Positions 3,860 to 46,522 of a stretch of DNA of 64,000 nucleotides are shown here, in pieces; position 1 is the stretch's first letter, and the number at the start of each line of letters is the position of its first letter. The notes under the pieces were generated by a model that saw nothing but the letters and a program-made list of their open reading frames with translations, was not told the origin of the DNA and made no database searches. A program made the position numbers and the translations under genes. The stretch lies in IMG/VR virus record IMGVR_UViG_3300037400_004242. The stretch is one strand, 5' to 3'. This stretch comes from a virus (Duplodnaviria; Caudoviricetes).

Positions 3860-6800
3860 ATGGCAGATAATGATGATGCGAAGAAAAAACAACAAGCAGA
3901 ACAAGAAAGTCAGGATGCAATACAATCTGCTTATGGTCGTGCAAGTCAAGCGGCGCAAAATGGCGGCACTTATATGACTGGTGTTTTTTCAACAAATGGA
4001 ACTGCTGAATTTGATGCAGGACGAGATATTTTAACGGGTGCAGATTTTAAAAAATATGAACATCCAGAGCGTCTTGTTGGAACACAAATGCAATATGCGA
4101 ATACCGGAAATATTCGTGTTGTAAATTTTAAACAAGATTATGTTGTTTTAATTCGCAAGAAATTATTTTATGCGGCAAATTCAGCAGGGAATATTGAAAA
4201 AGATAATGCTGAAATGTCTGATGGTAATTATGTTCGCACTTATAAATTAGATAATTGGACGAGTATTCGTACTAATATTAGTATTTCAGGTACGCCAGGA
4301 AATTGTCAGATAGATTTGCAAGGTGGGGAATGGGTTTTATGTTATGAAGAAACATCTTTAACAAATCGTGGCAAACCAATTGTAACATCAGAATATAATG
4401 GTTATGTAAGTGATGAATTTCCAAACAATAATGCTCAATTACAAAATGATTCAAGCAATAATTTTGAAAATACGCAAACACAACAAAATGACCCATCAAC
4501 ACAAGTAGAACATGGTGTTGCTACAGTTAATGATGCTATTGCAAATAATATTTGGAATCGCTCAGGCGTTCATCCATATCTAGAACAGTATCGTGGTATT
4601 ACATATGATACAAAAGCAAATCCAGATGGTAAAACAGGTACTGTTACAATGACAGATACAGATGGTACGGTACGTAAATTTACTTTACCGATGGATAATA
4701 CAAAACGTGATGAAAATATTTTAAATATTGGACAAAATTGTGAATCTGGTTATAAAATAGCAGAAAAATGCGATTGGGAACCAATGGATGAAGTTTGGAT
4801 TTATGGGAAATCAAACTTTGAACGTGATAGTAAATATAGCAATAGTGATTTTAAAATGAATCAAATTTTCTTTGGATACATTGATAATGTAACAAAGACT
4901 TATTTGAGTGGTAAATCCGCAGGATGTACCATTTCAATTACTGCTACAGACCAATTAAAATTATTAGATTTATCATATGTTACAATGAATCCATCTATGA
5001 CACCAGGTGCATCAGGTGTTGGAGGTATAGATTTACGTTATTCAAAACAAGATACTAGTCATTTTGGTACGTTTCGTTTATACAATCCATACTCTGTTAT
5101 GCAACAAATGGGATTGTTTGGTAGTGCAGAAGATGCTAAAAAAGCGCAAGAAGAGACATTAAACAACTCTTGGGAATTTCAAACATTAGCTAATATTTTT
5201 GGTGGAAAACCGATTGCTGAAATTATTAAACAGTTATGTTTAGATGCAGGTGTCCCAACTTGGTATTTAAAACAGCGTATAGAACCAATTCAATATCCAC
5301 CATTTGTGTATTCGTATAAACAATCAAATTCTTCCATGTTATTTAATGGAAGTATGATGAAACGATTGAATGAATGTCAAACAGCGGCAAGGAAATTATT
5401 ATTAGAATTTTTTGCAGACGAAGCAGGAAATATTGTTTTAAAATGCCCAAATTTTGCATTGGGTGTAAATTCAAAAGTAAAAAATAATATGGGATTTGCA
5501 GAATCTTGTTCTGCGATGATGAATATTGATATTGATAATATTCAACCATATTATGCAATTAATGAAACAAAAATAGATAATGCAAAATTGCAACATGCAT
5601 CACAAGAAGACTTAGATATTTTAAATAACACAAGTCATTCCACAAATGTTGACCAATGTAACCAATATAAAAGAGTAAAAGCCGCAGAAGAAATAGTAAA
5701 AGGTTCTAATTTAACAATGGCAGAAGCCGCAGATAAATTAAGCGGTTTAACGGAAACAAATCCACAATATACATTTATGAAACAATATACAACATACACA
5801 GATGATTATGGTAGTGGAGACAACGGTCCGATTTCTGTTTCTGTGCAAGCACCTGATACATTTGTAAGTTTGGCAGAAAGATATTTGGGCAAAAATAGTG
5901 ATGCATATTTAGATATTTATGACCAAGCATGTTCCCAGTTTAATACTGACGGAAAGCAAATTATTAAAGATATTAATGATTGCCAAGCTATTTATGGTCA
6001 GACATTAATTATTCGTAGAAATCGTTTATATGATAATCAAAATAAAACATGGTTAGGAAATTCCGACCAATTACGTGATGATTTAATTACAAAATATGGC
6101 GAAGACGAAAGTACATGGTACAAACAAGCAGAAGCAGAAGATAAAAAACAAGTTCAAAAACGTAAAGAAACACAAGAAAAATATATGCAACAAGTGCAGA
6201 AACAATATTCAGGGACATTATCAGAAATGACAGATAGTTTAATCCCTGAAATTCCGCAGGAATTTATATTGTCTTTTAGTTTAACAGATTCCGATAAACA
6301 GATTTATAATATGTATGAAGTTAATATTGAAGGAGACTTTGGAATCTTTGATAAAGGCGGACCGCTTCAAAAAATCTGTCGTGTATTTCCTGATATAGCT
6401 TCTATGATTCGCTTCGGTTGCCGTCCGAATCCTACGGTATACAATTTTCCATATATGGGGAATAAAGAAAATGCGCATTTATTAGGATTTATGTTATGTG
6501 CGATGTCATTAGCAAGAAGAAATTCAGCAACTTTAAGTATGATTGAAGATTCTTCTATTCATGTAGGCGACCCGATTCGTTTCTTCGCTTATGATGAACA
6601 TCCTGATGTTCCTTTATCAGAACAAAAAGGAGATAGAGGTCAATTTGAATCTGTACTAAATTCTATGGCTCGTACTTCTAAGGATTTGGAAACACAAACG
6701 ATGGAAACATTGTCTGGTTTTGAACAATTTGCCGTAGAAAAGGAGCAAGAAAAAGTAGAAGGTGGAAACTATACACCTTATAGGGAGAAAGACACGGGGA

Positions 6801-9709
6801 ATTATGTTGGTCATATTGATAAAGGTAATGCACTTAACATTATGACCGAAACAGATGTTTCTAAAAAAAGTTATGAAAAAGTTCCTGCTTCTCAAATGGC
6901 AACACATACAGATGCGCAAACAATTTATTATGTAGAACAAGTTTCTCGTAGCATTGGTGTTGCAAAAGAATCAACAATGACATTGACTTTAAGTTGTGGT
7001 CGTATGATGGGACATCCAAGTGTCATTGATTATATGTTATTATTATATCAAGCATATTTTGACCCTGCTTTAGGTTTTTGTCCTGATATTGCAGAATTAA
7101 ATAAATTAAGAGATAAATATAAAGGGAATACAAAAGAACATAAAATTACTCCATTAGATTGTTTAATTCAGATTGCGTATGATGAATATCATGTTTTGCA
7201 AAATGAAACGGCAGTTCCAGATATTGCAGTTAATACAGCGCAAGAAATAGAAAGTTTGCCTGAATCAAAATATGCACTTAGTAAATTAGCAGGTGATGGG
7301 GCTTCAGAAGTTCAATGCGTCGGATTAAAAAATTTCTTTGCGGCTGAAAATTTAAATTTGGGACAATTTCAGCCATTATTTGCTGATGTCTATCATTATA
7401 ATAACGATTGGAAAAAATTAACATCTATGATATATGGTCATGTGTCTTGTCCAAATCCTCGTGACCCGCAAATGGATATTGTAAAATTTAGTTTCGTTAT
7501 ATTTTTATTTGATTACAATCAAACTCGCTGGGCATTTAGTCGTACAGAAGGTGGAGGAACAGTAAACAAAGGATACAGTTTTGAAACACATTATAGGTCT
7601 GAGAATGAAGCAAAAAGTCAATATAATGTTTTAGCTGGTGTTCGTGCAAGATGGATAGCAGGAGAATATAACAAAACAAATAATGTAACAAGTTATAAAG
7701 AAATGTTAAATGCTGTTATTAATATGTTAAAAAAAGAAGCCATGAGTGTTGGCGATAGAAGTGAATATAGAGCAACAGCAAATGAATGTGTTTTTAAAGA
7801 TAATGAAATTAATCCTTCTATGAAAAATGTTACAGAAGGTTCAAAAGAATCTTCAATTGCGCAACAAAAGATTGAAGAACTACATCATGCTATTATTGCT
7901 TTAAATGTAGATAAATTTGGTAGTTCTTTGACAATTAATATGATACAGTTTGATGGCATATTAAATCGTCATATTGGTGAAACCATTATTATTCCAAAAG
8001 AAATAATATTAGGTGAAAAAAGTACAGATAAAGCAAATAAAAAAGATGAACCAGATTCAAAAACAGAAGTTGCGGCAAATGATGCAGAAAAACAAGCCTT
8101 TGGTAACGATGTCAAAAAATATCAAGTTGTTGAAAATGGTGTACATTGTATTCGTTATGAAAGTTCTACTTGTAAAGCACAGTATTATTTCAAAGAAGAT
8201 GGATGGGATAATTCCACGACACCTCCTGATATTAGTAAATGTGAAAAAAGTTTTGTAAAAATCAAAGAAGCAGATGGTTATCATTTAATTCAATCTCAAA
8301 GTTGTATTGATGGTCGTTCTAGAAACACGACAGTTAAAGTTGATACACTTATGACAGATGATACATATAGTACTGTTAAAGACAATGCCCCTGATGTTGT
8401 ATCTGTTTATGCCGCTGATGGACACCCAATAATAGAAAATGTTGAAATGGTATCAGGCACGATACAAGGCGAACAAAATGATATTGTTGCTAATGCAAAA
8501 GGAAACGGTTCATGCAAACCTTATACTGATATGGTTTATAATTACAAAGGTTCAACGCAAAAAGATGGCGCAGATTTTATGAACCAAACTAATAAATGGA
8601 GACATGCGAATAATATTGTTGCTGAAGATGAATTAACATATAAACAAATTCAAAATGGGAAAACTATAGATTCAACAACTTATCAAGTTAATTCTGATGG
8701 CAAAATGGAAAATGTTACAACAAAACCAGTTGAATTTAGTACAAACGAAAAAAACAATAATGCTAAAACATATTCTAATAGTAATGCACAAAATAATAAT
8801 TCTAGTAATCAAAAACAAATGACACCAGAAGAATATGAAAAATATACTTATAATAAATACAAAAGATTTGGAGAAGAAAAAGCAAAACAACAGGCCAAAT
8901 TAGCAAGACAAAACTATGAAAAAATTTATAATTCAAAAAATCAGAATGGAAATTCAACCACGAGATTAAATACAGATAAAGTAAATTCTGGTAATGAAAA
9001 TTATAAAAAACAATCTGAAAGTGTATTGGATGAATTAACTAAATCAAATCCAAATTCTATGAGTGACGAACAGTTAAACAAAAAAGAAACAAAACAAACT
9101 TCTACAAAATCAGAAGATATCCCAACTTCTGGAAAAAATAATAATCCAAAAAATGATAATTCAAAAAATACAACGAGTTCTGAAAATACTCAAACTGTTT
9201 CAACTGTTAAAAGCAGTATACCAGATAATACAACAGGTACTGATATTTGGGATAATAAGAAAAGTAATAATGGTTTTTCGAACAACGTTCAATCTCCTAT
9301 GTATAAATGTACAGCTAATTACGAAGGATTAAATAGTACGCAATTAAGAGCCGTGCGCGGTCAGAATACAACATCGAGTAGAGTAATTAAAGCAGATATA
9401 AATGATGATGGTAGTACGGTAGTTACAAAAATAGATAGAAATATGCGTGTAACAAAAGTGCGTTTTGATAGTGATGGAAAATATGCTGGTGAAGTAAAAA
9501 TGGATTCTCAAAAGTATTATAATGCTACTACTGGAGAAATGACGGATGTACAAACACGTAATGCTACAATAGCTCAAGTTGCTGGAGAATATGGATTAAG
9601 TTATACCGGGGCTGTTATTCTTGCGCCTGATATGAATACAAAGAAACAAGTTTTAACAGAATTACGAAATAAAGGTGTGCATTGTGATGTTGTTATTAGT
9701 AGAAGATAA
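3860..9709 (+). CDS. Baseplate hub-like large tail protein (1949 aa) with LysM-like segments
   Basis: Hub-like motifs IFFGYIDNV..TISITATDQLKLL, LEFFADEAGNIVLK and YYVEQVSRSI..TMTLTLSCGR. LysM-like segment DTFVSLAERYLG..GQTLII. Synteny fits a hub gene. Confidence 0.55.
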   Translation: MADNDDAKKKQQAEQESQDAIQSAYGRASQAAQNGGTYMTGVFSTNGTAEFDAGRDILTGADFKKYEHPERLVGTQMQYANTGNIRVVNFKQDYVVLIRKKLFYAANSAGNIEKDNAEMSDGNYVRTYKLDNWTSIRTNISISGTPGNCQIDLQGGEWVLCYEETSLTNRGKPIVTSEYNGYVSDEFPNNNAQLQNDSSNNFENTQTQQNDPSTQVEHGVATVNDAIANNIWNRSGVHPYLEQYRGITYDTKANPDGKTGTVTMTDTDGTVRKFTLPMDNTKRDENILNIGQNCESGYKIAEKCDWEPMDEVWIYGKSNFERDSKYSNSDFKMNQIFFGYIDNVTKTYLSGKSAGCTISITATDQLKLLDLSYVTMNPSMTPGASGVGGIDLRYSKQDTSHFGTFRLYNPYSVMQQMGLFGSAEDAKKAQEETLNNSWEFQTLANIFGGKPIAEIIKQLCLDAGVPTWYLKQRIEPIQYPPFVYSYKQSNSSMLFNGSMMKRLNECQTAARKLLLEFFADEAGNIVLKCPNFALGVNSKVKNNMGFAESCSAMMNIDIDNIQPYYAINETKIDNAKLQHASQEDLDILNNTSHSTNVDQCNQYKRVKAAEEIVKGSNLTMAEAADKLSGLTETNPQYTFMKQYTTYTDDYGSGDNGPISVSVQAPDTFVSLAERYLGKNSDAYLDIYDQACSQFNTDGKQIIKDINDCQAIYGQTLIIRRNRLYDNQNKTWLGNSDQLRDDLITKYGEDESTWYKQAEAEDKKQVQKRKETQEKYMQQVQKQYSGTLSEMTDSLIPEIPQEFILSFSLTDSDKQIYNMYEVNIEGDFGIFDKGGPLQKICRVFPDIASMIRFGCRPNPTVYNFPYMGNKENAHLLGFMLCAMSLARRNSATLSMIEDSSIHVGDPIRFFAYDEHPDVPLSEQKGDRGQFESVLNSMARTSKDLETQTMETLSGFEQFAVEKEQEKVEGGNYTPYREKDTGNYVGHIDKGNALNIMTETDVSKKSYEKVPASQMATHTDAQTIYYVEQVSRSIGVAKESTMTLTLSCGRMMGHPSVIDYMLLLYQAYFDPALGFCPDIAELNKLRDKYKGNTKEHKITPLDCLIQIAYDEYHVLQNETAVPDIAVNTAQEIESLPESKYALSKLAGDGASEVQCVGLKNFFAAENLNLGQFQPLFADVYHYNNDWKKLTSMIYGHVSCPNPRDPQMDIVKFSFVIFLFDYNQTRWAFSRTEGGGTVNKGYSFETHYRSENEAKSQYNVLAGVRARWIAGEYNKTNNVTSYKEMLNAVINMLKKEAMSVGDRSEYRATANECVFKDNEINPSMKNVTEGSKESSIAQQKIEELHHAIIALNVDKFGSSLTINMIQFDGILNRHIGETIIIPKEIILGEKSTDKANKKDEPDSKTEVAANDAEKQAFGNDVKKYQVVENGVHCIRYESSTCKAQYYFKEDGWDNSTTPPDISKCEKSFVKIKEADGYHLIQSQSCIDGRSRNTTVKVDTLMTDDTYSTVKDNAPDVVSVYAADGHPIIENVEMVSGTIQGEQNDIVANAKGNGSCKPYTDMVYNYKGSTQKDGADFMNQTNKWRHANNIVAEDELTYKQIQNGKTIDSTTYQVNSDGKMENVTTKPVEFSTNEKNNNAKTYSNSNAQNNNSSNQKQMTPEEYEKYTYNKYKRFGEEKAKQQAKLARQNYEKIYNSKNQNGNSTTRLNTDKVNSGNENYKKQSESVLDELTKSNPNSMSDEQLNKKETKQTSTKSEDIPTSGKNNNPKNDNSKNTTSSENTQTVSTVKSSIPDNTTGTDIWDNKKSNNGFSNNVQSPMYKCTANYEGLNSTQLRAVRGQNTTSSRVIKADINDDGSTVVTKIDRNMRVTKVRFDSDGKYAGEVKMDSQKYYNATTGEMTDVQTRNATIAQVAGEYGLSYTGAVILAPDMNTKKQVLTELRNKGVHCDVVISRR

Positions 9710-9726
9710 TCATACGAGGTAATAAT

Positions 9727-9906
9727 ATGGCAAATATATATGAAGAATTATTTAATAAAGTTAAAGGTGGTCAAAATCCAATTGAAGCGATTAGTAAAGT
9801 GCAAGGTGTAATTAGCCAAATAAAAACACTTAAAAATGCGGTTAGTAATCCTGTGAATGTTTATGATTTAGTGAAAGGAGCTATGAAAAAAATGCGAAGG
9901 AAGTGA
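9727..9906 (+). CDS. Small 59-aa protein not in the ORF track (MANIYEELFNKVKGG...KKMRRK)
   Basis: ATG at 9727 with SD GAGGT at 9716-9720 and TGA at 9904-9906. It fills the gap between two co-oriented genes. Confidence 0.7.
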   Translation: MANIYEELFNKVKGGQNPIEAISKVQGVISQIKTLKNAVSNPVNVYDLVKGAMKKMRRK

Positions 9907-21751: not shown

Positions 21752-22981
21752 ATGAGTGTAATAGATAAAATAGTAAAATATCGAATTCCGAAAAAAGGAA
21801 AATATAAATATGCATTTGATTCGTATAAAAAATCTCCTGAAGATAAATATGTTTTTATTAATCAAAGAGAATTGGTAAAAATTGTAACTGACGAAATTAA
21901 GTTTGATATAGAATGTATTTGTGATAAATGCGGGAAACATTTTACAAGAAGATTAGGATTACTAGAATTAGATAGAATTTATTGTCAGATATGTATTACA
22001 AAAGATACGAATCAAAAACGTTATGGTGTTGATGTTCCGATTCAAAATAAAAAGATTTATGAAAAAATAAAAAATACAATGATAGAAAGATATGGAGTAG
22101 ATAATTCCATGAAATCTCCTGAAGTACGAAAGAAATCACAGGAAACATTAATGAAAAATTATGGTGTAGAACATCCATCACAAAGTAAAGAAATTCAAGA
22201 GAGAACGAAAAAGACGTTTTTAAAAAAGTATGGCGTAGAATGTTCTTTACAGAATGAAAAAGTAAAAGAAAAAGCGAAGAAAACATTAATAGAAAAATAT
22301 GGTGTAGATAATTCAATGAAAGCTCCTGAAGTTCAAGAAAAATTTCGGAAAACAATGCAAGAACGTTATGGAGTAAATTATGTTTTTGAAAATGATACTT
22401 TATATGGAAAAGCAAAGCAAACCATGTTAGAAAAATATGGTTATGAATTTGCGATTAAGAATAAAGAAATTCAAGAAAAACAAAAGATAACATGTTTAAA
22501 ACATTTTGGAGTAGAATATCCTGCACAAAGTAAAGAAGTATTGAAACGGCAAGAAGAAACAAATTTAAAAAAATATGGATATAAGCATCCATTAGATTTA
22601 GCAAAAAATCGTGGATATATTAGTATTGAAAATATTCGATGTGCTTGTTCAAAACAACAAAAACATATTGCAGAATTAATTCATGGAGAAATTAATGTTC
22701 CTGTTGGAAGATATATTTTAGATATTGTTGTAGATAATATAAATATTGAATATGATGGTGGTGGACATCGTTTAAATGTAAAATTTGGCGTATTAACAAA
22801 CGAAGAATTTGATAAACAAGAAAATAAAAGAAATCAATGGATAATTCATAAAGGATATAAGGTAATTCGGATTATTTGTCCAAGGGATAAAATTCCTGAA
22901 GATGATATTATTTTAAAACAATTGAAAGAAGCTAGAGAAAAATTAAAAAAAGAAAATATAATATACATTACATGGGATTAA
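21752..22981 (+). CDS. Free-standing homing-type endonuclease: zinc ribbon, about 9 (K/R)YGV repeats and a C-terminal PD-(D/E)XK/DUF559-like domain
   Basis: Two CxxC pairs, ~23-aa YGV repeats, LDIVVDNINIEYDGGGH and GYKVIRI. Confidence 0.7.
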   Translation: MSVIDKIVKYRIPKKGKYKYAFDSYKKSPEDKYVFINQRELVKIVTDEIKFDIECICDKCGKHFTRRLGLLELDRIYCQICITKDTNQKRYGVDVPIQNKKIYEKIKNTMIERYGVDNSMKSPEVRKKSQETLMKNYGVEHPSQSKEIQERTKKTFLKKYGVECSLQNEKVKEKAKKTLIEKYGVDNSMKAPEVQEKFRKTMQERYGVNYVFENDTLYGKAKQTMLEKYGYEFAIKNKEIQEKQKITCLKHFGVEYPAQSKEVLKRQEETNLKKYGYKHPLDLAKNRGYISIENIRCACSKQQKHIAELIHGEINVPVGRYILDIVVDNINIEYDGGGHRLNVKFGVLTNEEFDKQENKRNQWIIHKGYKVIRIICPRDKIPEDDIILKQLKEAREKLKKENIIYITWD

Positions 22982-27958: not shown

Positions 27959-30415
27959 ATGGTGCAATTAGATTTAGATAATGTATATTTAAAAATTACA
28001 GGATTAGAAAAAGATGAAGAAATGAAATTATGGAATCTTCTTTCTTTTCCTGTACAAGTTTTCGGTATGCAAGAAGTTCGTTATCGACATTTATATAATC
28101 GTAAAACAAAGAAAACATACGCTGGTTTACTAGAGTATGTGGAAGGACATCTGAAAGATAGGAACATTAAATATATATTAAAGGATAATCGTATAAAGCC
28201 GCAACAAAATGCTAATTTCAAATTAGTGGATTATATTGATAATGAAAAGAAAATTCCATTGAAACTTAGACCATATCAGCAAGATATAGTAGATAAGTGT
28301 AGAGAACGAGAAGTAATACAAGCAGCTACTGGAGCAGGAAAAGCATTACCATTAGATACAGATATTCTTACTCCAAACGGATTTGTTAAAATGCGTGATA
28401 TTCATGTTGGTTCTGTTGTTTATGATGAAAATGGAGAAAAAACAAGTGTAATTGCAGAATTTCCACAAAACGAATTGAAACAAGAATATAAAATTACATT
28501 TAATGATGGTAGTTATGTGATTTGTTGTAAGGAACATCTATGGAAATATGATGTTAAAACCAATCTCAAACATCATAGATGGAAAGTGAATAATATTGTT
28601 GATATTATTAACAAATATGGATTAAAAAAGAGTAGGTCATTAAATATATATATTCCTGTATGTAAACCAATTCAATTTGATAAAAAAGAATTGCTTATTC
28701 CACCATATTTAATGGGTGCATTACTTGGTGATGGGGGTTTTACACAGAATACAATTTCTTTTACTAATGTTGAAAAAGATATTATTGATAAAGTCAATTT
28801 ATTGGTTTCAACATGGGGTGTTTTTAAACATAAGAAAAATAAAAGCCATCCACAACTACATTTTGTTGGTGGTGAAAATAATTTATTTAAAAAATATATA
28901 GAAAATACGTTTCACCATGCAAATTCAAAAACAAAATTTATTCCAAATGAATATAAAATGAGTTCTATCGAAGATAGATTAGAATTAATTCGTGGATTAA
29001 TTGATACTGATGGTTCCATAAATGAAAAGGGACATATAAAAATTGGCTTTGTTAGTGAACAATTAGCAAAAGATTTGCAATTTGTTCTTCAAAGTCTAGG
29101 CTATCGTTCTAAAATGACGATTGACAAAAGAAAAGGAAGAAATGATACGTATAATTTATATATACGTGGTTGTGATGATAAATTATTTTCTTCAATAAAG
29201 CATAAAGAAAGATTTAAACATCATAAAGTAGCAAAAAATCATTACTACGACATTTTAAAAATTGTTTCAGTAGAACCATTAGATAAAAAATCAGAAATGA
29301 AATGTATTACAGTTGATAGTCCTTTACATACATATATTTGTAAAGACTTTATTGTAACACACAATACATTGATGATGGCAGGATGTATTGCCAAATTTAA
29401 TGTAAAACCTGTTTGCATTTTTGCAGATAAAATAGGATTATGTCAACAATTGAAACAAGAAATGGAAAAATTTCTTGGTGTTGAAGTTGGTTTGGTCGGT
29501 GATGGTCATGAAGACTATAAAGATATTACAGTTATTTCTGTACAATCTGCCGATGAAAAGTATATCCAAAAAGCACAAATGTGTTTGTGGGACGAATGTC
29601 ACCATGTGCCAGCTCATACAATAGTTTCTATAGCGAACAAATGCACACAGGCATATTACAGGGTTGGCGTTTCTGCAACACCTTGGCGTGATGCAGGTGA
29701 TGACTTGCTTATTGAAGCAGTTTTAAATAAAAAGAAAGATGCTATTATTTCTGCATCAAAATTAATTGAATTAGGATATTTAATTAAACCAGATATTTAT
29801 TTTGTACCAATTAAACAAGTTTTTAAAGGAAAAAATTATCAAGATATTTATAAAAAAGCAATTGTAGAAAATATAGATAGAAATAAAATTGTTTGCAAAA
29901 TAGCTTATAATATGTTTATTCGTAATAAACATGTGTTAATTCTTTATAAAAATATTGCGCATGGAGAAACTTTACGTGATATGATGGAAAAAAGATTAAA
30001 TGCAAAGGCAACGCCAATTACTGTTAACCATCCAGTTACAGGAAAAGAACAAACAATTCGTGTAAAACCTGTAGAATTACTTTCAGGAAATGATGATACG
30101 TTAAAACGTGTCGCAGTTTTTGAAGCAGTTAAGAGAGGAATTTGCCGTTGTTTAATTGCATCAACAATTGCTGATGAAGGATTAGATTTGCCTATCTTAG
30201 ATACTTTAATTCTTGCTGGTGGTGGTAAATCTTCAACGAGAGCTTTTCAACGTGTCGGACGTGTATTAAGGCTTCATGAAGGTAAAACAAAAGCGATTGT
30301 TTTTGATTTTACAGATTATACGCCTATGTTACGTAGACATTCAAGAAATAGACAAAAATATTATGAACAGGAACCTATGTGGGATATTCATAAATTTAAT
30401 GTGAATCCAGATTAA
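27959..30415 (+). CDS. Superfamily 2 (UvsW/XPB-like) DNA helicase with an intein in Walker A
   Basis: LRPYQ, ATGAGK|intein|T, DECHH, SATP, EGLDLP and QRVGRVLR. Confidence 0.9.
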   Translation: MVQLDLDNVYLKITGLEKDEEMKLWNLLSFPVQVFGMQEVRYRHLYNRKTKKTYAGLLEYVEGHLKDRNIKYILKDNRIKPQQNANFKLVDYIDNEKKIPLKLRPYQQDIVDKCREREVIQAATGAGKALPLDTDILTPNGFVKMRDIHVGSVVYDENGEKTSVIAEFPQNELKQEYKITFNDGSYVICCKEHLWKYDVKTNLKHHRWKVNNIVDIINKYGLKKSRSLNIYIPVCKPIQFDKKELLIPPYLMGALLGDGGFTQNTISFTNVEKDIIDKVNLLVSTWGVFKHKKNKSHPQLHFVGGENNLFKKYIENTFHHANSKTKFIPNEYKMSSIEDRLELIRGLIDTDGSINEKGHIKIGFVSEQLAKDLQFVLQSLGYRSKMTIDKRKGRNDTYNLYIRGCDDKLFSSIKHKERFKHHKVAKNHYYDILKIVSVEPLDKKSEMKCITVDSPLHTYICKDFIVTHNTLMMAGCIAKFNVKPVCIFADKIGLCQQLKQEMEKFLGVEVGLVGDGHEDYKDITVISVQSADEKYIQKAQMCLWDECHHVPAHTIVSIANKCTQAYYRVGVSATPWRDAGDDLLIEAVLNKKKDAIISASKLIELGYLIKPDIYFVPIKQVFKGKNYQDIYKKAIVENIDRNKIVCKIAYNMFIRNKHVLILYKNIAHGETLRDMMEKRLNAKATPITVNHPVTGKEQTIRVKPVELLSGNDDTLKRVAVFEAVKRGICRCLIASTIADEGLDLPILDTLILAGGGKSSTRAFQRVGRVLRLHEGKTKAIVFDFTDYTPMLRRHSRNRQKYYEQEPMWDIHKFNVNPD
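28343..29365 (+). mobile_element. 341-aa intein with a LAGLIDADG endonuclease; Ala1 and WCT triplet (class 3 type)
   Basis: Starts ALPLDTDILTPNGF and ends FIVTHN|T. Endonuclease motifs MGALLGDG and IRGLIDTDG. Block B HLW, block F KCITV, block G VTHN. Confidence 0.9.
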
Positions 30416-33924: not shown

Positions 33925-34779
33925 ATGAGTATAGGAATTTATAAAATAGAGAATTTAGTAAATCACAAAGTATATATTGGACAAAGCATTAATATTGAAC
34001 GAAGAAAATATTCACATAAAAATGATTTAAAAAGAAATTGCCAACATAATAAATTAATGCAACAAGATTTTAATTTATATGGAATAGAAAATTTTTCTTT
34101 TGAAATATTAGAATTATGTGCGAAAAATAAATTAAATGAAAGAGAACAATTTTATATTCAAAAATATCAATCTGATATTCAAGGATATAATTATACAATA
34201 GGTGGTAAATACACAAAAGAAACTAAATTAATGGAAAAAAGTTTAAGATTATCTTCTTATAATTTGCATCAAGCGCATCTTATAAAATATGCATTATATA
34301 TGGATATGGATAGAGAAGAAATAAGTAAAATGTTTCATATTTCTATAAATGTGCTATATAATATTCATCATTATGTATGGTTTTATAAAATTAATTTAAA
34401 AATGAATTATTATATAATTCATAGAAATGAAATTTTGCTATCCATTAGGAATCATAAAATGAGAAAAATGTTTGCATGTGGATATGCTGTATATGATATT
34501 TTAAAGAAATATCATGTGACAATGATGCCTAAAATCTATGAAATAGACAAAAGAAATCGTGACAATAAATTAAAATTTCAAACAAAATTAATTAAAAATT
34601 ATAGTTTGTTTTTAAAGAAAAGATATACATTAAAACATATATCAAAAATATTAAAAATAAATTATAAAACTTTGTTAAAAATATTAAATCATAATTTTGT
34701 ATTAACACCAAAATATGTGAATTATGATATAAAAAATATAATACATGGAAGTGATAAACATGAGTATTGGAATTTATAA
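33925..34779 (+). CDS. GIY-YIG homing endonuclease
   Basis: GIYKIENLVNHKVYIGQS..R..H..HN..E..GYN. Confidence 0.85.
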   Translation: MSIGIYKIENLVNHKVYIGQSINIERRKYSHKNDLKRNCQHNKLMQQDFNLYGIENFSFEILELCAKNKLNEREQFYIQKYQSDIQGYNYTIGGKYTKETKLMEKSLRLSSYNLHQAHLIKYALYMDMDREEISKMFHISINVLYNIHHYVWFYKINLKMNYYIIHRNEILLSIRNHKMRKMFACGYAVYDILKKYHVTMMPKIYEIDKRNRDNKLKFQTKLIKNYSLFLKKRYTLKHISKILKINYKTLLKILNHNFVLTPKYVNYDIKNIIHGSDKHEYWNL

Positions 34780-35314
34780 AATTGAAAATTTAGTAAATCA
34801 TAAGGTATATATTGGACAAAGTAAAAATATAGAACGAAGATTTCGTGAACATAGATATGCTTTAAAACATCATAAACACCATAATCCATTATTGCAACAA
34901 GATTATAATGATGGACATAAATTTTCATATCAAATTGTAGAAATTTGTTGTGTTCATGAATTAAATGAAAAAGAAAAAATTTGGATAAGTTTTTATCGTT
35001 CTAATATTATCGGATATAATTATGATGATGGTGGAATAAACAATAAGAAATATAATGAACATTTTCAGTCATATTTTAAAAGTCATTCAAATAATCCTAG
35101 AAAGATTGCAAAAGCAAGAAGCAAATATGATGAAGGAACAATTCGTAAAGTAAAACTTGCGTTATATATGGATATGGACAAACATGCTATTGCAGAATTG
35201 TTCCATGTAGAGTATGATTATGTACATAGACTAACATATAGAACAATGCATTATGCGGAGAGAATCTTATCACAATTAAACGATTACATTAAAAAGGTAC
35301 GAAGATATGGATAA
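34760..35314 (+). CDS. GIY-YIG homing endonuclease, second tandem paralogue; start more likely 34760 than 34745
   Basis: The first 21 aa are identical to the upstream copy when started at ATG 34760. Confidence 0.85.
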   Translation: MSIGIYKIENLVNHKVYIGQSKNIERRFREHRYALKHHKHHNPLLQQDYNDGHKFSYQIVEICCVHELNEKEKIWISFYRSNIIGYNYDDGGINNKKYNEHFQSYFKSHSNNPRKIAKARSKYDEGTIRKVKLALYMDMDKHAIAELFHVEYDYVHRLTYRTMHYAERILSQLNDYIKKVRRYG

Positions 35315-38617: not shown

Positions 38618-39610
38618 ATGATTTTAAATCAATACATTGAAAAACATTGGAATCCTAGGAATAAAAAATATTTCATTGAAAAAGGTTATTCTTTTACAAA
38701 AATGTATGATGTTGTTCTTATAAATATAAAAGATTTATCTGATAAAGATAAAGTAAAAGTAAAATGTAATTGTAATTCTTGCGGGAAAGAATTTCAGGTA
38801 GCATATCATATTGCTTTAAAAGATTGTAGATGTCAAGAATGTAAAAAGAAAGAAACATATTTAAAGCATTATGGAGCGACACATAATATGAAAAGTAAAG
38901 ATGGGAAAAAAGAATATCAAAAATCTATTCAGGAAAAGTATCATGTAAATAATGTATTTGAATTAGAATCTATACAACAAAAAATTAAAAATACATGTTT
39001 GAAAAAATATGGTGTAGAACATCCATTACAGAATAAAAACATATTAAAAAAAGAACAACAAACAAATTTGAAGAAATATCATGTATTAGCTCCAACACAA
39101 AACAAAGAAATATTGCAAAAATCCATAAATACATTAATGAAAAATTATCATGTAGATTCTCCATTGAAAAATAAAGAAATTTTAAAGAAACAACGTCAGA
39201 ATATGAATAATATTTCTAAATATCAAAAGAGAATTTGTACATGGTTAAATGGGATATTAAATTATAGAATCTCTAAATATTGTTTAGATATAGCATTAAT
39301 AAAAGAAAAAATAGATGTTGAATATGATGGCGGTGGACATGATTTAGAAGTTATAATGAAACGTATATCAAAAGAAAATTTTGTTCAAAAAGAGCAAAAA
39401 AGAAATAAATTTTTAATTTCTCGTGGGTGGAAAATTATACGTATCATTTCAAAAAAAGATAAATATATAAATAAAAATGAATTTCTGACAGTATTTAGTC
39501 ATTGTTTGAAGAAAAATTTTAAATTGATAAAAATTTTCATTGATACAAAAATATTAGATATTGATGGAAATGTTGCAGACATCAAAGATTTCGTGTATAA
39601 TAATGACTAA
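38618..39610 (+). CDS. Homing-type endonuclease of the same YGV-repeat/EYDGGGH family as 21752
   Basis: Two CxxC pairs, KY(G/H)V repeats, LDIA..DVEYDGGGH and GWKIIRI. Confidence 0.7.
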   Translation: MILNQYIEKHWNPRNKKYFIEKGYSFTKMYDVVLINIKDLSDKDKVKVKCNCNSCGKEFQVAYHIALKDCRCQECKKKETYLKHYGATHNMKSKDGKKEYQKSIQEKYHVNNVFELESIQQKIKNTCLKKYGVEHPLQNKNILKKEQQTNLKKYHVLAPTQNKEILQKSINTLMKNYHVDSPLKNKEILKKQRQNMNNISKYQKRICTWLNGILNYRISKYCLDIALIKEKIDVEYDGGGHDLEVIMKRISKENFVQKEQKRNKFLISRGWKIIRIISKKDKYINKNEFLTVFSHCLKKNFKLIKIFIDTKILDIDGNVADIKDFVYNND

Positions 39611-39632: not shown

Positions 39633-40346
39633 ATGTCAGAAAAAAGTTTGAAAGTAGATAATACGTATGGCGTAGAACAAATTCACATGCTAAAAGGGTT
39701 AGAAGCAGTACGTAAACGTCCTGGTATGTATATAGGTTCTACGTCACAGTCAGGTATTGACCAGCTTGTATATGAAATTATTGATAATTCTATTGATGAA
39801 TTTGTAGCAGGTTGGGGTAAAGAAATAGATGTCCATGTATATAAGGATTGTTCAGTAGAAGTTATAGACCACGGTAGAGGTATTCCTGTTGGAAAAAGTG
39901 ATACTTTTAAGGATGAAGATGGGAATCCGATTGATACATTAACAGGTATTCTTACAAATCTTCATGCAGGAGGAAAGTTTACATCAGAAGGGTACAAATG
40001 CTTTTCTTCTGATAGTAAAGTAAAAACATCGGAAGGTCTTAAAAAGATTGAAGATGTTAAACCAATTAAAGATTACGTATTCAATTCATACAATGAGTTA
40101 TCAAAGGTTGATAATAAATTTGGGTATGATTACAATGGCGATATTAATTGTATTGAACTTGAAAATGGGAAAAAGATAAAAGCAATTGATGGTCATTATC
40201 TTCTTGTGCGTACACAGGAAGGAAATTTAATTTGGAAAAAAATTGAAGATGTTACTGAAAATGAAAGTCTTGTTGAATTGGAAGATACAGATGATGTAGA
40301 AGTACTGAAGAAAACAATTCCTGTATATAACAAAAGGAAATATTAA
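39633..40346 (+). CDS. gyrB: GyrB N-extein (122 aa) fused to a split-intein N-fragment (115 aa, 39999-40343)
   Basis: GLEAVRKRPGMYIG, EIIDNSIDE, DHGRGIP, LHAGGKF..YK|CFSSDSKV. ATG 39633 follows SD AGGAG. Confidence 0.92.
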   Translation: MSEKSLKVDNTYGVEQIHMLKGLEAVRKRPGMYIGSTSQSGIDQLVYEIIDNSIDEFVAGWGKEIDVHVYKDCSVEVIDHGRGIPVGKSDTFKDEDGNPIDTLTGILTNLHAGGKFTSEGYKCFSSDSKVKTSEGLKKIEDVKPIKDYVFNSYNELSKVDNKFGYDYNGDINCIELENGKKIKAIDGHYLLVRTQEGNLIWKKIEDVTENESLVELEDTDDVEVLKKTIPVYNKRKY

Positions 40347-40347
40347 G

Positions 40348-41406
40348 GTGGTAATCTTGTCAATTAAACAAGTATTATTAAAAAATTCTAATGAATGGAT
40401 TGACTATGATGAATCTCAATTTGAATTTAAAAACATTAAATTAAAATGTTCCAAAAAGGAATCTTTGCACTTAATGTATAAAAATGTTCCTGTTGTAAGA
40501 GTACGATATTTTTGTGATGTATGTGGTATCGTTCGCGAATCTGATTGGGGAAAATATAAAAATCAACAATATTTAAAAAATAAATGTATGTGCCGTTTGT
40601 GTAGTATTCAAACAGAAGAAAACAAAAATAAAATTTCTGAAAGAACTAAACGAGCTATGCAAACGGATATTGTTAAAAAACATCATAGCGAAGCTCAAAA
40701 AAAGCGTTTTCAACGAAAAGAAGAAAGGTTAAAAAGCTCTATTCGTTCTAAAGAAATTATGTCTCGTGATGGAATGAAACAATTAGTACGTGAACGTACA
40801 AAACAAGCTATGGTTTCTATTCCAAAAGAAGAACTTGTTTCTACAAAAAATATGACACATGAACAAATTTTAGAGCATTATAAAAAAATTGGACAAAAAA
40901 TTCATGAAAACTATAATGAAGAAACTAAATTAAAGTGCCAAAAATCTACACAAGAACATTTTTTTAACAACATTAAAGCACAAAATAAAGCAATTAATGG
41001 GTTTAGGAATGGACAATTAAAAAAAATATCTGCACCACAAAAAATGGTATCTGATTTTTTAAAGTCGTATAAAGATTTTGATGTCATAGAAGAATTTCCT
41101 ATAAATGTATGGGATGATATAGAATATGATAAAAAATTCTTATTATGCGATATATATATTCAAAATTTAAATGTTGTAATTGAAGTTATGGGAGATTATT
41201 GGCATAAATATTTTTTAGATAAATTAAATGGAATAACAACAAAAAAAGATAATGATAATTTGTTGAAAAATTACAGAAACGACTTGATAAAAGATAAAAT
41301 TTATAAATCAAAGAAAATTAATGTTATCTATTTTCAAGAAGAAGAACTTAAACAAGAGAATTGGAGAGAAATGCTAATCAAGAAAATTAAGGAGTATGTG
41401 AAATGA
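40348..41406 (+). CDS. Free-standing Vsr-like/PD-(D/E)XK endonuclease between the gyrB halves (start possibly TTG 40357)
   Basis: Two CxxC pairs, NUMOD3-like helical repeats, and EEFP..CDIYI..VIEVMGDYWH. Confidence 0.75.
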   Translation: MVILSIKQVLLKNSNEWIDYDESQFEFKNIKLKCSKKESLHLMYKNVPVVRVRYFCDVCGIVRESDWGKYKNQQYLKNKCMCRLCSIQTEENKNKISERTKRAMQTDIVKKHHSEAQKKRFQRKEERLKSSIRSKEIMSRDGMKQLVRERTKQAMVSIPKEELVSTKNMTHEQILEHYKKIGQKIHENYNEETKLKCQKSTQEHFFNNIKAQNKAINGFRNGQLKKISAPQKMVSDFLKSYKDFDVIEEFPINVWDDIEYDKKFLLCDIYIQNLNVVIEVMGDYWHKYFLDKLNGITTKKDNDNLLKNYRNDLIKDKIYKSKKINVIYFQEEELKQENWREMLIKKIKEYVK

Positions 41407-43103
41407 AATTTGTAAAAGTAAAAAGCATAACAAAACAAAAATATCAAGGTAAAATTTATGACCTCGAAGTTATGAATACACATACTTATAACATTGAAAA
41501 CATTGTTGTAGGAAATTGTTCTTCTGGATTGCACGGCGTGGGGTCAACGTGTGTCAATGCGCTTTCAGATTCGTTTGATGTGTTTGTAAAACGTGATGGG
41601 TATACTTGGCATCAAACGTTTCATCAAGGCACTCCTACGACCCCGGTAGAGCGTTTAAACTCCACTTCTGAAACAGGTACGATTATTAAATATCATCCTG
41701 ATAAAAAAATTTTTAAAATTACACTTCAACCGAGCGAACACATTAAACATCGTTTGAGTGAATTAGCTTCTTTGAATGCAGGTTTAAAAATTATTTATAC
41801 AAATGATATTACAAAAGAAAATGCTGAATATCATTTTGAAAATGGAATTACAGGATATACACTTCATATGATTGGAGATAAACAAAAATTGTATGAAGAA
41901 CCTTTTTCTTTTACAGACACGTATAAAGTAGAAGATGGGCATGATATTCTATGTGATATTTCATTCATTCATGATGATGAAACGGAACCGAATGTAAAAT
42001 TAAAAAGTTTCGCAAATAACATTAACACTTATGAAGGTGGTTATCATCTTCAGGGATTTAAAAATGGATACAAAGAATGTATTAACCAATATGCATTAGA
42101 TAAAAAAATGATTAAAGAACCATTGGAAATGCAATATTTAATGGATGGATTATATGCAACAATTTCCATTAAATTGTATCAGCCTGAATTTGAAGGACAG
42201 ACAAAAACAAAACTTGGCAATAAAGAAGCACAAGATGCAGTTTCTTCTGTTGTTCATAAATATTTTGATTCCATTATCAAGAAAAAAGACAAACGTGATA
42301 TTATTGATGCAATTGTTAATCGAGCGATTAAAGTTAAAGAAGCTGAACTAAATGCTAGAAAAGCTAGAGCAATTAGTCGTAAATCAAAAAAATTGATGAA
42401 AACAAGTTTGCCTGGTAAGTTGGCAGATTGCTCTAATAAAAATGGCTACACGGAATTATGGATGTGTGAAGGAGATTCTGCCGCAGGGAGTATGAAAGAA
42501 GGACGTGACCGTTCTTATCAAGCAGTATTAGGATTAAGAGGTAAAATTTTAAATGTCAACAAAGCAGACATGAGTAAAATTCTTAATTCTGATACAATTA
42601 AAGGTATTATTGCTTCTATTGGTGGTGGAATTGGAAAAACATTTAATTTAGATGATGTACGATATGATAAGATAATTATTGGCACAGATGCGGATGTTGA
42701 CGGTGAACACATAAGAACACTTGTTCTTACGTTATTTTATTATTACATGCCAAAACTTATCGAATCTGGTCGTGTGTATTCTGCACAGCCGCCACTTTAT
42801 AGGATTATTAAAAAGAATAATGAATCTGTTTATTTATTGAATGATTCTGATTTAAAAGAATATCGTAAAAAACATAAAAATGAATCATATCAGATAAATC
42901 GCTTCAAAGGGTTAGGCGAAATGAACCCAGACCAATTAAGAGAAACGACAATGGATATTCATAATCGAACGTTACGTAGAATTACGTTAGATGATGCACA
43001 AGAAGTTGCAGAATTGTTTGAAACGTTAATGGGTAAAGATGTAAATAAGCGTAAACAATTTATTGAAGCAAATTCTGATATGGTAGATTTAGAAGCTCTA
43101 TAA
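41403..43103 (+). CDS. gyrB: Split-intein C-fragment (38 aa, 41403-41516) fused to the GyrB C-extein
   Basis: MKFVKVKSI..IYDLEV..HTY..VVGN|CSSGLHGVG, followed by FEGQTK, EGDSA, LRGKILN, DADVDG and RFKGLGEM. Confidence 0.92.
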   Translation: MKFVKVKSITKQKYQGKIYDLEVMNTHTYNIENIVVGNCSSGLHGVGSTCVNALSDSFDVFVKRDGYTWHQTFHQGTPTTPVERLNSTSETGTIIKYHPDKKIFKITLQPSEHIKHRLSELASLNAGLKIIYTNDITKENAEYHFENGITGYTLHMIGDKQKLYEEPFSFTDTYKVEDGHDILCDISFIHDDETEPNVKLKSFANNINTYEGGYHLQGFKNGYKECINQYALDKKMIKEPLEMQYLMDGLYATISIKLYQPEFEGQTKTKLGNKEAQDAVSSVVHKYFDSIIKKKDKRDIIDAIVNRAIKVKEAELNARKARAISRKSKKLMKTSLPGKLADCSNKNGYTELWMCEGDSAAGSMKEGRDRSYQAVLGLRGKILNVNKADMSKILNSDTIKGIIASIGGGIGKTFNLDDVRYDKIIIGTDADVDGEHIRTLVLTLFYYYMPKLIESGRVYSAQPPLYRIIKKNNESVYLLNDSDLKEYRKKHKNESYQINRFKGLGEMNPDQLRETTMDIHNRTLRRITLDDAQEVAELFETLMGKDVNKRKQFIEANSDMVDLEAL

Positions 43104-43283: not shown

Positions 43284-43817
43284 ATGGCAGAGTTATGGAT
43301 TGCTATGGATATAGATGATGAATATGCAAAAAATCAGTTGGCATATTATCAAACTCTTTTAAAACAAAAAACACATGGTGATTGGGAAGACCCAAATGAT
43401 TTTCATATTACAATAGATTATATTGGAGAAAATGAAGATAATTTTGAAAAAGTTGTAGACGCTATGAAATTATATCAAAAAGAAACTGATGTCTTTAATC
43501 AATATGTTTTTGGAAATCATATTCGTAGATTTGATGGGGGAGCACTCTGGATAGGAGTTGACGAATCTTTTAAATTGTATAAAATCCATTATCGTTTGGA
43601 AGAACTTTTAGACCAAGTTGGGTATGTAAAAGCTCCTAGTAAATTTCCAAATTATACACCACATATTACAATGGCATTTAATACTCCAAAAATAGATTAT
43701 GAAATTAAAATGAACAAAATACCAATTCCTGTTACAAACATTACATTATGGAACTCTTTTAAAGTTAATGGAGAATATGTTGATAACGTTTTATATAAAA
43801 TCAATTTAATTAAATGA
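43284..43817 (+). CDS. 2H phosphoesterase (LigT/ThpR-like)
   Basis: Two HxT motifs: FHITID and PHITMA. Confidence 0.85.
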   Translation: MAELWIAMDIDDEYAKNQLAYYQTLLKQKTHGDWEDPNDFHITIDYIGENEDNFEKVVDAMKLYQKETDVFNQYVFGNHIRRFDGGALWIGVDESFKLYKIHYRLEELLDQVGYVKAPSKFPNYTPHITMAFNTPKIDYEIKMNKIPIPVTNITLWNSFKVNGEYVDNVLYKINLIK

Positions 43818-44119: not shown

Positions 44120-46522
44120 ATGGAGGAATTTATTGTGGCACATAAGAAACAAGAGGATATAGAATCTTTAATTGCTAATGAGAATATTATTGATTGTAAT
44201 ATCTTAGATGAATTGCCAAGAGCATATATGGATTATACTATGTTGTCTATTGTTGGACGTGCTTTACCTGATGTTCGTGATGGATTAAAACCTGTACAGA
44301 GACGTATTTTATATTGCTGTAAAGAAAAAGGCTATGATAGTAATAAGTCATATATTAAAAATGCTAAAATTAGCGGTGACGTTATGGGTAATTACCATCC
44401 TCATGGAGATTGCTATGGGACTGTTGCGAATATGGCAAAACCGTGGGTATATCGTTATCCATTAATTGATTTTCATGGAAATATGGGGTCTATTGATGGA
44501 GATTCTGAAGCAAGCTCTCGCTACACAGAAGGACGTTTGGCAAACATTTCTTATGAATTATTAGAAGATGTTTTAGATAAGCATTGTGTAGAATTTCGTG
44601 ATAATTATTCAGAAACATTAAAGGAACCAGTTACGTTACCTGCATTATTTCCAAATTTCTTGGTAAATGGATGCCCAACAGCAATTGCAGTTGGTTATAC
44701 ATCATGTGTTCCTTCTCATAATTTAAATGAAGTTTGTGATGGAATTATTTATGCAATTCGTCATAAAGATTTTTCATTAGAAGATTTGATGAAGAAAATT
44801 AAAGGTCCTGACTTTCCTTATGGTTCTCAAATGTTAAAAAAGGGAATTAAAGAGTTATATGAAACTGGAGAAGGGAAACTTACTTTCCGCGCACATTACC
44901 AAATTGAAAATAATAATGAAAATGGGAATCCACAAATTGTGTTTACAGATATGCCACCATATTCTGATAAGCCTAAAATCATAGAAAAAATTCATAATAT
45001 GATTACAGAAAAAACAATCGGAAGAGTTTTGTCTGTAAGAGATGAATCAACAGGTTTAGACATTCGTATTGTTGTTGAATGTCAAAAAACTGCAAATATC
45101 CCGTTAATTATTCAAGATTTGTATGATAAAACAAATCTTCAAGCAAATGCTTCTTTTCATATGAGAGGTATTTATGATAAAGAATTAAAACTTGTTACCT
45201 TAGTTGATTACGTAAATACATATATTGATTATCGTAAAGAAGTTTTAACTAATCGTTATAAATCTTTATTGGATGTTGATGGTAAAAAATTAAACATTCA
45301 AAAAAGTTTAGCAAAAGTTATTGATGATATTAAAACAGCAGTTAATATTATCATTGATAGTGAAACTGTTGAAGAAGCAAAAACGAAATTAATCAAAAAA
45401 TATGATTTAAATGAAGAACAAGTTCACTATATCTTAGAACAAAAAACTCGTTCTTTGGTTCATAAAGATAGAGACGTTATCTTTAAAAAGATTCAAGAAC
45501 TTGAAAATAACATTAAAAAATATAATCTATATTTAAATGATGATACAGAAATGGAAAACCTCATGATAGAACAGCTAGAAGAGCTAAAGAAGCGTTTCGG
45601 AGACAAACGCAGGACAACTATCGTGTCTGAGTTTGAAAGCGATTCTGCGGCGTCTGAGAGCGTTTCTGAGGATGTTATAGCTGTACTTTATGCCAATGGT
45701 AAAGTTAATGTATATGAACTTGAAGAATATCAGAAATTTAAAGATACAAAGACATATAAAGACCGTACAAATATATTCTTACAGTCTTTGAAATGTAAGC
45801 GTAGCGATGATTTGTTAATCATTCGTAAAACAGGTATTGTAGAACGTGTTCCTATGAATAGTTTACAATATAATAACATGAAATTTGATGATGCAATTAA
45901 CTTCATTAAATTTGATACAGAATCTAATAAAACTTTAATTTCTGTATTGAAAAATGGTTTCGTAAAGAAAACATTAATCAATAAAATGAAATTCAGAATG
46001 AATAAACCGACACAGATAATTAAAGATATGGATTCTGAAATTATTATTAATAAAGTTGTAGATGATACAAAGGATGAAACTATTACACTTGCAACGCATA
46101 ATGGCTGTATTGGTCGTTTTAGTGTTAATTCCTTTATGGCTACAGCTTGTGGCGCGAAAGCTATGGTTACTTGTAAATTGGAAGATGGAGATTACATCGA
46201 AGATTGTAAGATTAGTCTAGCAAGTGAAGATAATAAAAATAAGATTTTGATTCTTTTTAATAAGAATGATGATACAGTTGGATACAAAGTCATGAATCTA
46301 AATGATATTCTTATTAAAGGTAGAACTGCAAGAGCAATTTCTTATATTTCAGGAAGAAAGTTTAAAAATTTAAATAGTATCTTTATTTCTGATGCAGACT
46401 TTGTATTGCTAAATGATAAAAATAAAGAATTTACATTTAGTAAATATGAGATTTCAAAACGTTCTGATAAAGGTGCAGATTTTAAGCATATAGTTGGAAT
46501 TAAGAATTTCATCGAAGATTAA
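44120..46522 (+). CDS. gyrA: Type IIA topoisomerase A subunit (GyrA/ParC-like)
   Basis: RALPDVRDGLKPVQRR, YHPHGD, catalytic SRYTE, GPDFP, VRDES and a degenerate beta-pinwheel C-terminal domain. Confidence 0.9.
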   Translation: MEEFIVAHKKQEDIESLIANENIIDCNILDELPRAYMDYTMLSIVGRALPDVRDGLKPVQRRILYCCKEKGYDSNKSYIKNAKISGDVMGNYHPHGDCYGTVANMAKPWVYRYPLIDFHGNMGSIDGDSEASSRYTEGRLANISYELLEDVLDKHCVEFRDNYSETLKEPVTLPALFPNFLVNGCPTAIAVGYTSCVPSHNLNEVCDGIIYAIRHKDFSLEDLMKKIKGPDFPYGSQMLKKGIKELYETGEGKLTFRAHYQIENNNENGNPQIVFTDMPPYSDKPKIIEKIHNMITEKTIGRVLSVRDESTGLDIRIVVECQKTANIPLIIQDLYDKTNLQANASFHMRGIYDKELKLVTLVDYVNTYIDYRKEVLTNRYKSLLDVDGKKLNIQKSLAKVIDDIKTAVNIIIDSETVEEAKTKLIKKYDLNEEQVHYILEQKTRSLVHKDRDVIFKKIQELENNIKKYNLYLNDDTEMENLMIEQLEELKKRFGDKRRTTIVSEFESDSAASESVSEDVIAVLYANGKVNVYELEEYQKFKDTKTYKDRTNIFLQSLKCKRSDDLLIIRKTGIVERVPMNSLQYNNMKFDDAINFIKFDTESNKTLISVLKNGFVKKTLINKMKFRMNKPTQIIKDMDSEIIINKVVDDTKDETITLATHNGCIGRFSVNSFMATACGAKAMVTCKLEDGDYIEDCKISLASEDNKNKILILFNKNDDTVGYKVMNLNDILIKGRTARAISYISGRKFKNLNSIFISDADFVLLNDKNKEFTFSKYEISKRSDKGADFKHIVGIKNFIED

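Follow-up and report, generated by a model that had tools for sequence, protein, structure and literature searches.

Within IMG/VR virus record IMGVR_UViG_3300037400_004242 (Duplodnaviria; Caudoviricetes), analyzed here as one stretch of 64,000 nucleotides (nt; called the window), the gene for a GyrB/ParE-like topoisomerase subunit is broken in its ATP lid by what appears to be a natural split intein. Our reading, to which we assign a probability of about 0.85, is that the N- and C-terminal intein fragments (IntN and IntC) splice in trans to join the subunit and that a Vsr-like nuclease gene lying between the halves is an optional homing driver. Because each of two genes carries half of an apparent self-splicing element, the enzyme is most likely joined after translation, and this jumbo-phage topoisomerase would probably need such joining within its ATP lid. 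The locus and its partner gene comprise the following features:

39633-39998, + strand: N-extein, the first 122 amino acids (aa) of a GyrB/ParE-like type IIA topoisomerase B subunit (HATPase_c; PRK05644), from the GHKL ATPase through the first half of the ATP lid
39999-40346, + strand: IntN, 115 aa plus a TAA stop, with Cys1, block B A-I-D-G-H and an acidic patch followed by a short basic tail
40342-40348, + strand: left ATTAAGG direct-repeat copy, over the IntN stop and the ribosome-binding site (RBS) of the nuclease gene
40357-41406, + strand: free-standing Vsr-like (EDxHD-type) putative homing endonuclease, 349 aa, assigned from fold alignment and Atlas features
41387-41393, + strand: right ATTAAGG copy, inside the 3' end of the nuclease gene and overlapping the AAGGAG RBS of the IntC gene
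41403-41516, + strand: IntC, 38 aa, with Asp-F4 (D20), His-F13 (H27), penultimate Gly37 and Asn38
41517-43103, + strand: C-extein, 528 aa from Cys+1, with the second half of the ATP lid, transducer, TOPRIM and C-terminal domain (Pfam DNA_gyraseB, Toprim, DNA_gyraseB_C; motifs intact)
44120-46522, + strand: partner A subunit, GyrA/ParC-like, 800 aa, with a catalytic SRY motif

The three tightly packed open reading frames (ORFs) are arranged as the first-pass annotation of this DNA had described, at 39633-40346 (ORF1), 40348 or 40357-41406 (the nuclease gene, on the same strand between the two gene halves) and 41403-43103 (ORF3). ORF1 is preceded by an RBS-like GAAGGAG, the nuclease and IntC genes each have their own RBS, and an ATGA at 41403-41406 forms a 4-nt overlap between the end of the nuclease gene and the start of IntC. 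The measured lengths of 115, 38 and 650 aa for IntN, IntC and the joined product also agree with that annotation, as do the terminal Gly-Asn, the Cys at +1 and the Ile in place of Thr in block B.

The NCBIfam GyrB profile PRK05644 matches ORF1 over positions 5-115 and ORF3 over positions 115-636, and the extein halves therefore abut. With the intein removed, the exteins of 122 and 528 aa make up a 650-aa subunit in which the ATPase, transducer and TOPRIM motifs are all in place and the lid junction reads YK/CSSGLHG. We take the break to correspond to Lys110/Val111 of E. coli GyrB, in the ATP lid. The gene had been called gyrB; the two halves score 131 and 530 bits against the NCBIfam gyrB equivalog and, as a rough sum, fall below its cut-off of 882. 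Since the partner A subunit also has no canonical GyrA-box (no RGGKG motif), we use the name GyrB/ParE-like. The best cultured-phage match of the C-extein is Bacillus phage G (51%), and near relatives occur on contigs of up to 348 kb, with an intact-allele relative on one of 405 kb. We read the source as a phage G-like jumbo phage of the rumen; the holders of the locus come mostly from bovine and pig gut metagenomes, in 12 studies.

The split recurs widely. An identical ORF1 product is encoded on 10 independent contigs (10 assemblies from three sources), and the same gene order is seen on seven contigs that reach well into ORF3 and on two that are cut shorter. Twenty clusters share IntN at 61-96% identity, all stopping after IntN, and deeper members extend down to 44%. 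IntN is 113-116 aa long and stop terminated in 53 of 54 homologues, the remaining one being a 61-aa fragment. The tight packing of stops and starts could mimic two frameshifts in one contiguous endonuclease-containing intein, damaged by assembly error or decayed into a pseudogene, and the first-pass annotation had itself named assembly errors at the stops as a way its proposal might fail. Identical breaks in all 10 assemblies, breaks in over 50 homologues, among which three stop codons are used, and a separate RBS for each downstream gene effectively refute this explanation. Moreover, longer proteins, 50%-cluster representatives, the 80 best cellular gyrB loci and GenBank phages yielded no contiguous intein at the lid site, although these are weak negatives. 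Stop-codon recoding or read-through was also considered and rejected. Long ORFs end in TAA or TGA and the IntN stop is TAA, TGA or TAG depending on the relative, so that read-through offers no common explanation.

Approximate ratios of nonsynonymous to synonymous substitution were 0.11-0.30 for IntN, 0.11-0.41 for IntC, 0.2-0.37 for the nuclease and 0.09-0.26 for the exteins, the first three being comparable to the exteins or somewhat higher. These ratios indicate that the split locus is under purifying selection. Sister phages with the same synteny carry intein-free alleles that read GYKCSSGLHG, exactly the junction predicted for splicing, and align to the 650-aa product at 74-86%, in agreement with the earlier proposal that splicing restores the lid. 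In cellular GyrB, the +1 position is V, I or T at 80 of 80 loci, and the Cys of the phage clade thus offers a nucleophile there.

Removal of the insert at the RNA level, or its bypass by ribosomes, we judge very improbable. Group I-like introns do interrupt the same gene elsewhere in relatives, and one RNA-library contig (X16 record 10) crosses the lid uninterrupted. That contig, however, has 27 differences from the window and continues exactly as the intact L027 allele, another strain; because the L027 allele retains an intron, read-through of this type looks like DNA. Other RNA-library contigs span the IntN stop into the nuclease gene and the nuclease gene into IntC unskipped, which is weak evidence because DNA can be present, and as contigs these data carry no transcription level or strand. 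Whatever register is chosen for the 1518-nt insert, a U at the exon end and a terminal G, which group I rules call for, do not occur together, and across relatives the gap between the halves varies freely in content and in size from 12 nt to about 2 kb. Rfam gave no match in the insert, but the same scan missed the group I-like introns of relatives, and its blank is therefore uninformative.

The halves themselves carry the marks of a class 1 intein. Pfam Intein_splicing matches both fragments in order (31-111 on ORF1 and 120-155 on ORF3), below its gathering score. By the residue definitions in PMC4031507, the class 1 set of Cys1, His-B10 (His66), Asp-F4 (D20), the terminal Asn (Asn38, G7) and Cys+1 is present, and each of these is invariant down to 44% IntN identity. 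A class 3 intein, with Cys at F4 and no Cys1 nucleophile, was ruled out, F4 being Asp and Cys1 being present. A read-through of a nuclease-less allele was modeled as a HINT domain with a predicted local distance difference test (pLDDT) score of 88; intein structures were its best matches, with Foldseek E values of 1e-8 to PhoCDC21-1 and 9e-8 to gp41-1. When modeled as a complex, IntN and IntC scored 0.90 against 0.36 for the best control, with partner pLDDT of at least 88 and at least 96% of contacts agreeing between runs. Among solved pairs, 58 of 80 attain the mark for this score, as do 2 of 110 mismatched ones, but the score shows likeness only, because split-domain halves tend to pass via likeness to solved structures. 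The two halves are thus predicted to form one HINT fold. Taken with conservation, selection and the intact sister alleles, this prediction supports the first-pass proposal of a split intein in a fractured gyrB-like gene. Its description of IntC as basic applies to the window (net charge +3) and does not extend to the family, in which relatives range from -1 to +3.

Several observations weigh against our reading. In the intein profile search, position B7 was Thr in 113 of 126 scored proteins, and a Thr there assists step 1 (PMC4031507); this lineage has Ile throughout, in 53 of 53 complete IntN sequences. The penultimate residue (G6) is Gly, not His, in all 8 lineages. F13 is His in the window and in 6 other lineages and Gly in the P0037 lineage (21 contigs; L031-L033), which therefore has neither C-terminal histidine. 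In addition, nuclease-less inteins (L015 and L029) fall within the laterally spread group described below, and the nuclease is accordingly no more than a candidate driver. The penultimate Gly, which together with the absent Thr-B7 and the Cys at +1 had led the first-pass annotation to call this intein atypical, has a precedent. The mycobacteriophage RDF intein has a penultimate Gly and splices fast and efficiently, and a block F His can substitute for the penultimate His (PMC5050341). The missing Thr-B7 is thus the more unusual trait.

An alternative that we consider unlikely is that the intein halves no longer splice and serve as docking tails that join the GyrB pieces. It has precedents in Aeh1 NrdA-a/b (PMC3045599) and T4 gp39/gp60 (bioRxiv 10.1101/2022.08.31.505936), it would accommodate the loss of Thr-B7, His-G6 and, in one lineage, His-F13, and the tails would likewise be under purifying selection. 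Nevertheless, the residues needed only for chemistry (Cys1, Asn38, Cys+1, His-B10 and Asp-F4) are invariant across 44-100% identity, and the element enters intact alleles at exact intein boundaries. To judge from the GHKL structure, a 153-aa insert in the middle of the ATP lid would also be hard to tolerate. Less probable still is an intein that cleaves only at its ends, leaving a nicked heterodimer, or that splices slowly or conditionally as a timer on phage DNA replication. The atypical assisting residues would suit such behavior, and tuning of the splicing rate via the penultimate residue has been proposed for phage inteins (PMC5050341), but the invariant Cys+1 and Asn fit full ligation. 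A nicked lid would, moreover, be unlikely to trap ATP.

Trans-splicing of an intact split intein would proceed from two precursors, GyrB-N-IntN (about 26.7 kDa) and IntC-GyrB-C (about 64.5 kDa). IntN and IntC would come together as a single HINT fold and follow the class 1 splicing route, beginning with an N-S shift at Cys1 aided by His-B10 and Asp-F4. Transfer to Cys+1 and Asn cyclization would follow, with His-F13 helping in place of the missing penultimate His. The product, a B subunit of 650 aa (about 73.5 kDa) whose ATP lid is unbroken, would work with the A subunit encoded at 44120-46522. Both this chemistry and the dependence of enzyme activity on splicing are inferred.

The split intein spreads laterally among phage lineages. 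Three extein lineages each include intact and split alleles, with N-exteins 97.5-100% identical within a lineage; between the three, inteins are 88-96% alike and exteins only 73-81%. L015 and L022 are 92-98% identical across the intein and 57-88% in the exteins, with the change falling at the intein ends and synonymous divergence of about 0.1-0.2 within the intein against 1.1-1.25 outside. Conversely, the exteins of intact L027 and split L015 are 98-100% identical. L019 is a mosaic of three types, and one rumen library contains both intact and split alleles. The greater likeness of inteins than exteins, with boundaries at the intein ends, is the basis for our conclusion that the split element moves.

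The gene between the halves is supported, by its modeled fold, as a Vsr-like putative homing endonuclease, consistent with the earlier assignment. Its start is most likely the TTG at 40357 (349 aa), where homologues have Met; the GTG at 40348 would give 352 aa. A Cys-rich N-terminal part and a helical middle precede a C-terminal nuclease domain at about residues 222-349, and the model of these residues aligned by VIA-align with Vsr 1cw0 (Z 10.2, root mean square deviation [rmsd] 4.2, 115 aligned) and with I-Bth0305I 3r3p (Z 9.9, rmsd 3.6, 97 aligned). Fold matches to 3hrl, 1cw0 and 3r3p ranged from Z 9.9 to 10.6, with Foldseek E values of only 0.16-0.44, and Atlas features indicated DUF559 at 0.93. 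Asp265, Glu276, His283, Asp309 and Asp313 are invariant among 9 nuclease homologues, and residue 280 is D or N. The protein had no match in Pfam and a chance match alone in NCBIfam, and a designation as HNH, from a weak PHROG match, was dropped in favor of the Vsr fold.

By analogy with its family (PMC3239194), we infer that the nuclease drives the spread of the element. As an optional selfish driver between the halves, it would, in mixed infections, probably cleave gyrB alleles that lack the intein, close to the lid codons, with copying of the whole split-intein cassette.

Alleles in relatives are intact, split with the nuclease, split with a frameshifted nuclease, split with a 12-nt gap, or split with other, unrelated cargo. 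The gap is 12 nt in L015-L018 and L029 and 117 nt in L031, and the nuclease is therefore optional. The frameshifted form, L116, has one additional base in an A run, which cuts the nuclease short; as a single contig it may be an error. In L034 the gap holds an unrelated 122-aa gene (8584-8952); L030 (8729-10716) carries a homologue of it followed by an S-adenosylmethionine methyltransferase and a C5 DNA methylase. This gene is 122-124 aa long and 31% alike in the two loci. ATTAAGG repeats bracket the 1044-nt nuclease cassette, the repeat at the two corresponding positions of L012 is 19 nt long, and the nuclease-less alleles L015 and L029 join at the ATTAAGG repeat. These junctions fit either loss of the nuclease by recombination or its arrival in a gene that was split beforehand. 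Trees of the exteins and inteins, unrooted and mostly weak in their deep branches, favor neither order of splitting and nuclease gain.

A broader proposal, which we consider less likely than not, is that the lineage has a rebuilt active site with which it splices in the absence of Thr-B7 and a penultimate His (and, in one branch, of His-F13) and that it spreads as an already split unit whose gap is an exchangeable cargo slot for nothing, a nuclease or methyltransferases. If so, it would represent a mechanistically distinct and probably orthogonal trans-splicing pair.

Other insertions occur in the topoisomerase genes of relatives. Group I-like introns, with U at the exon end, a terminal G and R/S-like motifs, lie at three sites in the GyrB C-part (window 42473, 42696 and 42913) and in the N-part; Rfam missed these introns, some of which carry HNH or GIY-YIG genes. 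They are located at L002:11281-11507, L004:12661-12887, L012:3479-4322, 4546-4900 and 5118-5363, and L019:9061-9378 and 9596-9822, and L031 has two before position 960. In L012, one subunit would need three RNA splices plus protein trans-splicing. A second, contiguous and HNH-containing intein lies in the GyrB C-part at the TOPRIM DxD motif (L004:11048-12433 and L015:7997-9387), and L034:8967-11090 has a mini-intein after EGDSAAG in the GyrB C-part. Gene calling divides the A subunit gene in two in L012 (5744-7354) and L021 (8515-10618), and in L031 (4636-8064) this gene holds a contiguous intein. A RAGATH-18 RNA match above the gathering score lies just 5' of the gyrB region at L012:213-288. 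At window position 42281, low-depth RNA-library contigs of one sample (X15 and X17) have an A run that is longer by one A; this would put GyrB-C out of frame and is probably an error or a local variant.

Elsewhere, the window encodes baseplate, helicase, primase, HU and GyrA-like genes. A free-standing DUF7487/DUF559 putative homing endonuclease gene (38618-39610) lies directly 5' of gyrB-N in window-type strains and is absent from L015, L019 and L022; BLAST found no relation between it and the middle nuclease, and a gene resembling it lies at 21752-22981. A superfamily 2 helicase gene (27959-30415) holds a contiguous LAGLIDADG intein at the Walker A motif, and two tandem GIY-YIG genes (33925-35314), absent from more distant relatives, lie between the DnaB helicase gene and a primase zinc-finger gene. 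A 2H-phosphoesterase gene with a weak Acb1 (anti-CBASS) match (43284-43817) separates the B and A subunit genes and is kept in most relatives. GATC occurs 0 times in window positions 1-64000, against about 180 expected, and GCWGC 3 times, a depletion that likely reflects restriction avoidance. A promoter scan was at chance level (32 versus 36).

Natural split inteins are few and are valued as protein-ligation tools. The more than 50 sequences of this family vary naturally at catalytic positions and provide a test of the importance of Thr-B7, His-G6 and His-F13. Likewise, the series of intact, nuclease-bearing, decayed, nuclease-less and other-cargo alleles in co-occurring rumen phages makes the 2009 fractured-gene model testable, including whether the nuclease caused the split or arrived later.

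The layout class is known from Dassa et al. 2009 (PMC2677866), whose fractured genes with split inteins include gp41-1, gp41-8, NrdJ-1, IMPDH-1 and NrdA-2, with no topoisomerases among the hosts. As in those systems, a host N-part with IntN is followed by a same-strand, free-standing Vsr-like nuclease and by IntC with the host C-part. An acidic IntN is paired with a basic IntC as in IMPDH-1 and NrdJ-1, and a nuclease-less allele exists as for gp41-7. The end of the nuclease overlaps the start of IntC by 6-69 bp in the 2009 set, and the 4 nt here are slightly shorter. In contrast, the present host is a GyrB/ParE-like subunit split in its ATP lid, IntN has 115 aa rather than 88-105, the intein lacks Thr-B7 and has a penultimate Gly, the habitat is rumen and gut, and a complete allele series and lateral spread are visible. 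The nuclease is preceded by a spacer of 1-10 nt in which no hairpin is significant (folding z-scores of 0.18-0.55), whereas 15 of the 16 loci of the 2009 study have spacers of 27-51 nt with hairpins, a common but not defining trait.

The first-pass annotation knew of no gyrB example, and the host class is not wholly new, because a 2022 preprint mentions such a break in the topoisomerase II of a phage (bioRxiv 10.1101/2022.08.31.505936, text and Table S2). There, in MGS5, a T4-like phage also from bovine rumen, a VSR nuclease divides the Topo2L large subunit and Hint domains are attached to each half. MGS5 Topo2L is, however, of the T4 gp39 type, and the sequence given for it runs through the ATP lid without a break. 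In a second entry the split falls at the TOPRIM motif, and the mention is a passing one in which the intein itself is not analyzed. In the mainly openly accessible literature, no paper that we found describes a natural split intein in the GyrB lid or this Thr-less, Gly-Asn intein lineage. The lid site, the unusual catalytic residues and the lateral movement of a split element thus appear to be undescribed.

The nuclease resembles I-Bth0305I of the EDxHD group (PMC3239194; PDB 3r3p) in its C-terminal Vsr-fold domain behind a long N-terminal region and possibly in its conserved Asp, Glu, His and Asp. It differs in an identity of only about 20% and in a Cys-rich, helical N-terminal region in which NUMOD repeats were not detected. 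Contiguous inteins are known from 33 bacterial GyrB cases (PMC4760082). Their host is likewise of the GyrB type, but they are encoded in cis, and the Ssp GyrB intein was split artificially, whereas the present intein is split naturally. We take the Ssp GyrB intein to lie at the TOPRIM EGDSAGG/S site, outside the lid. Finally, T4 gp39/gp60 (MobA) and Aeh1 NrdA-a/b (MobE) are likewise essential phage enzyme genes broken by a mobile nuclease, and there, too, the split stays after nuclease loss. Unlike the present locus, those proteins have no intein and assemble noncovalently via tails.

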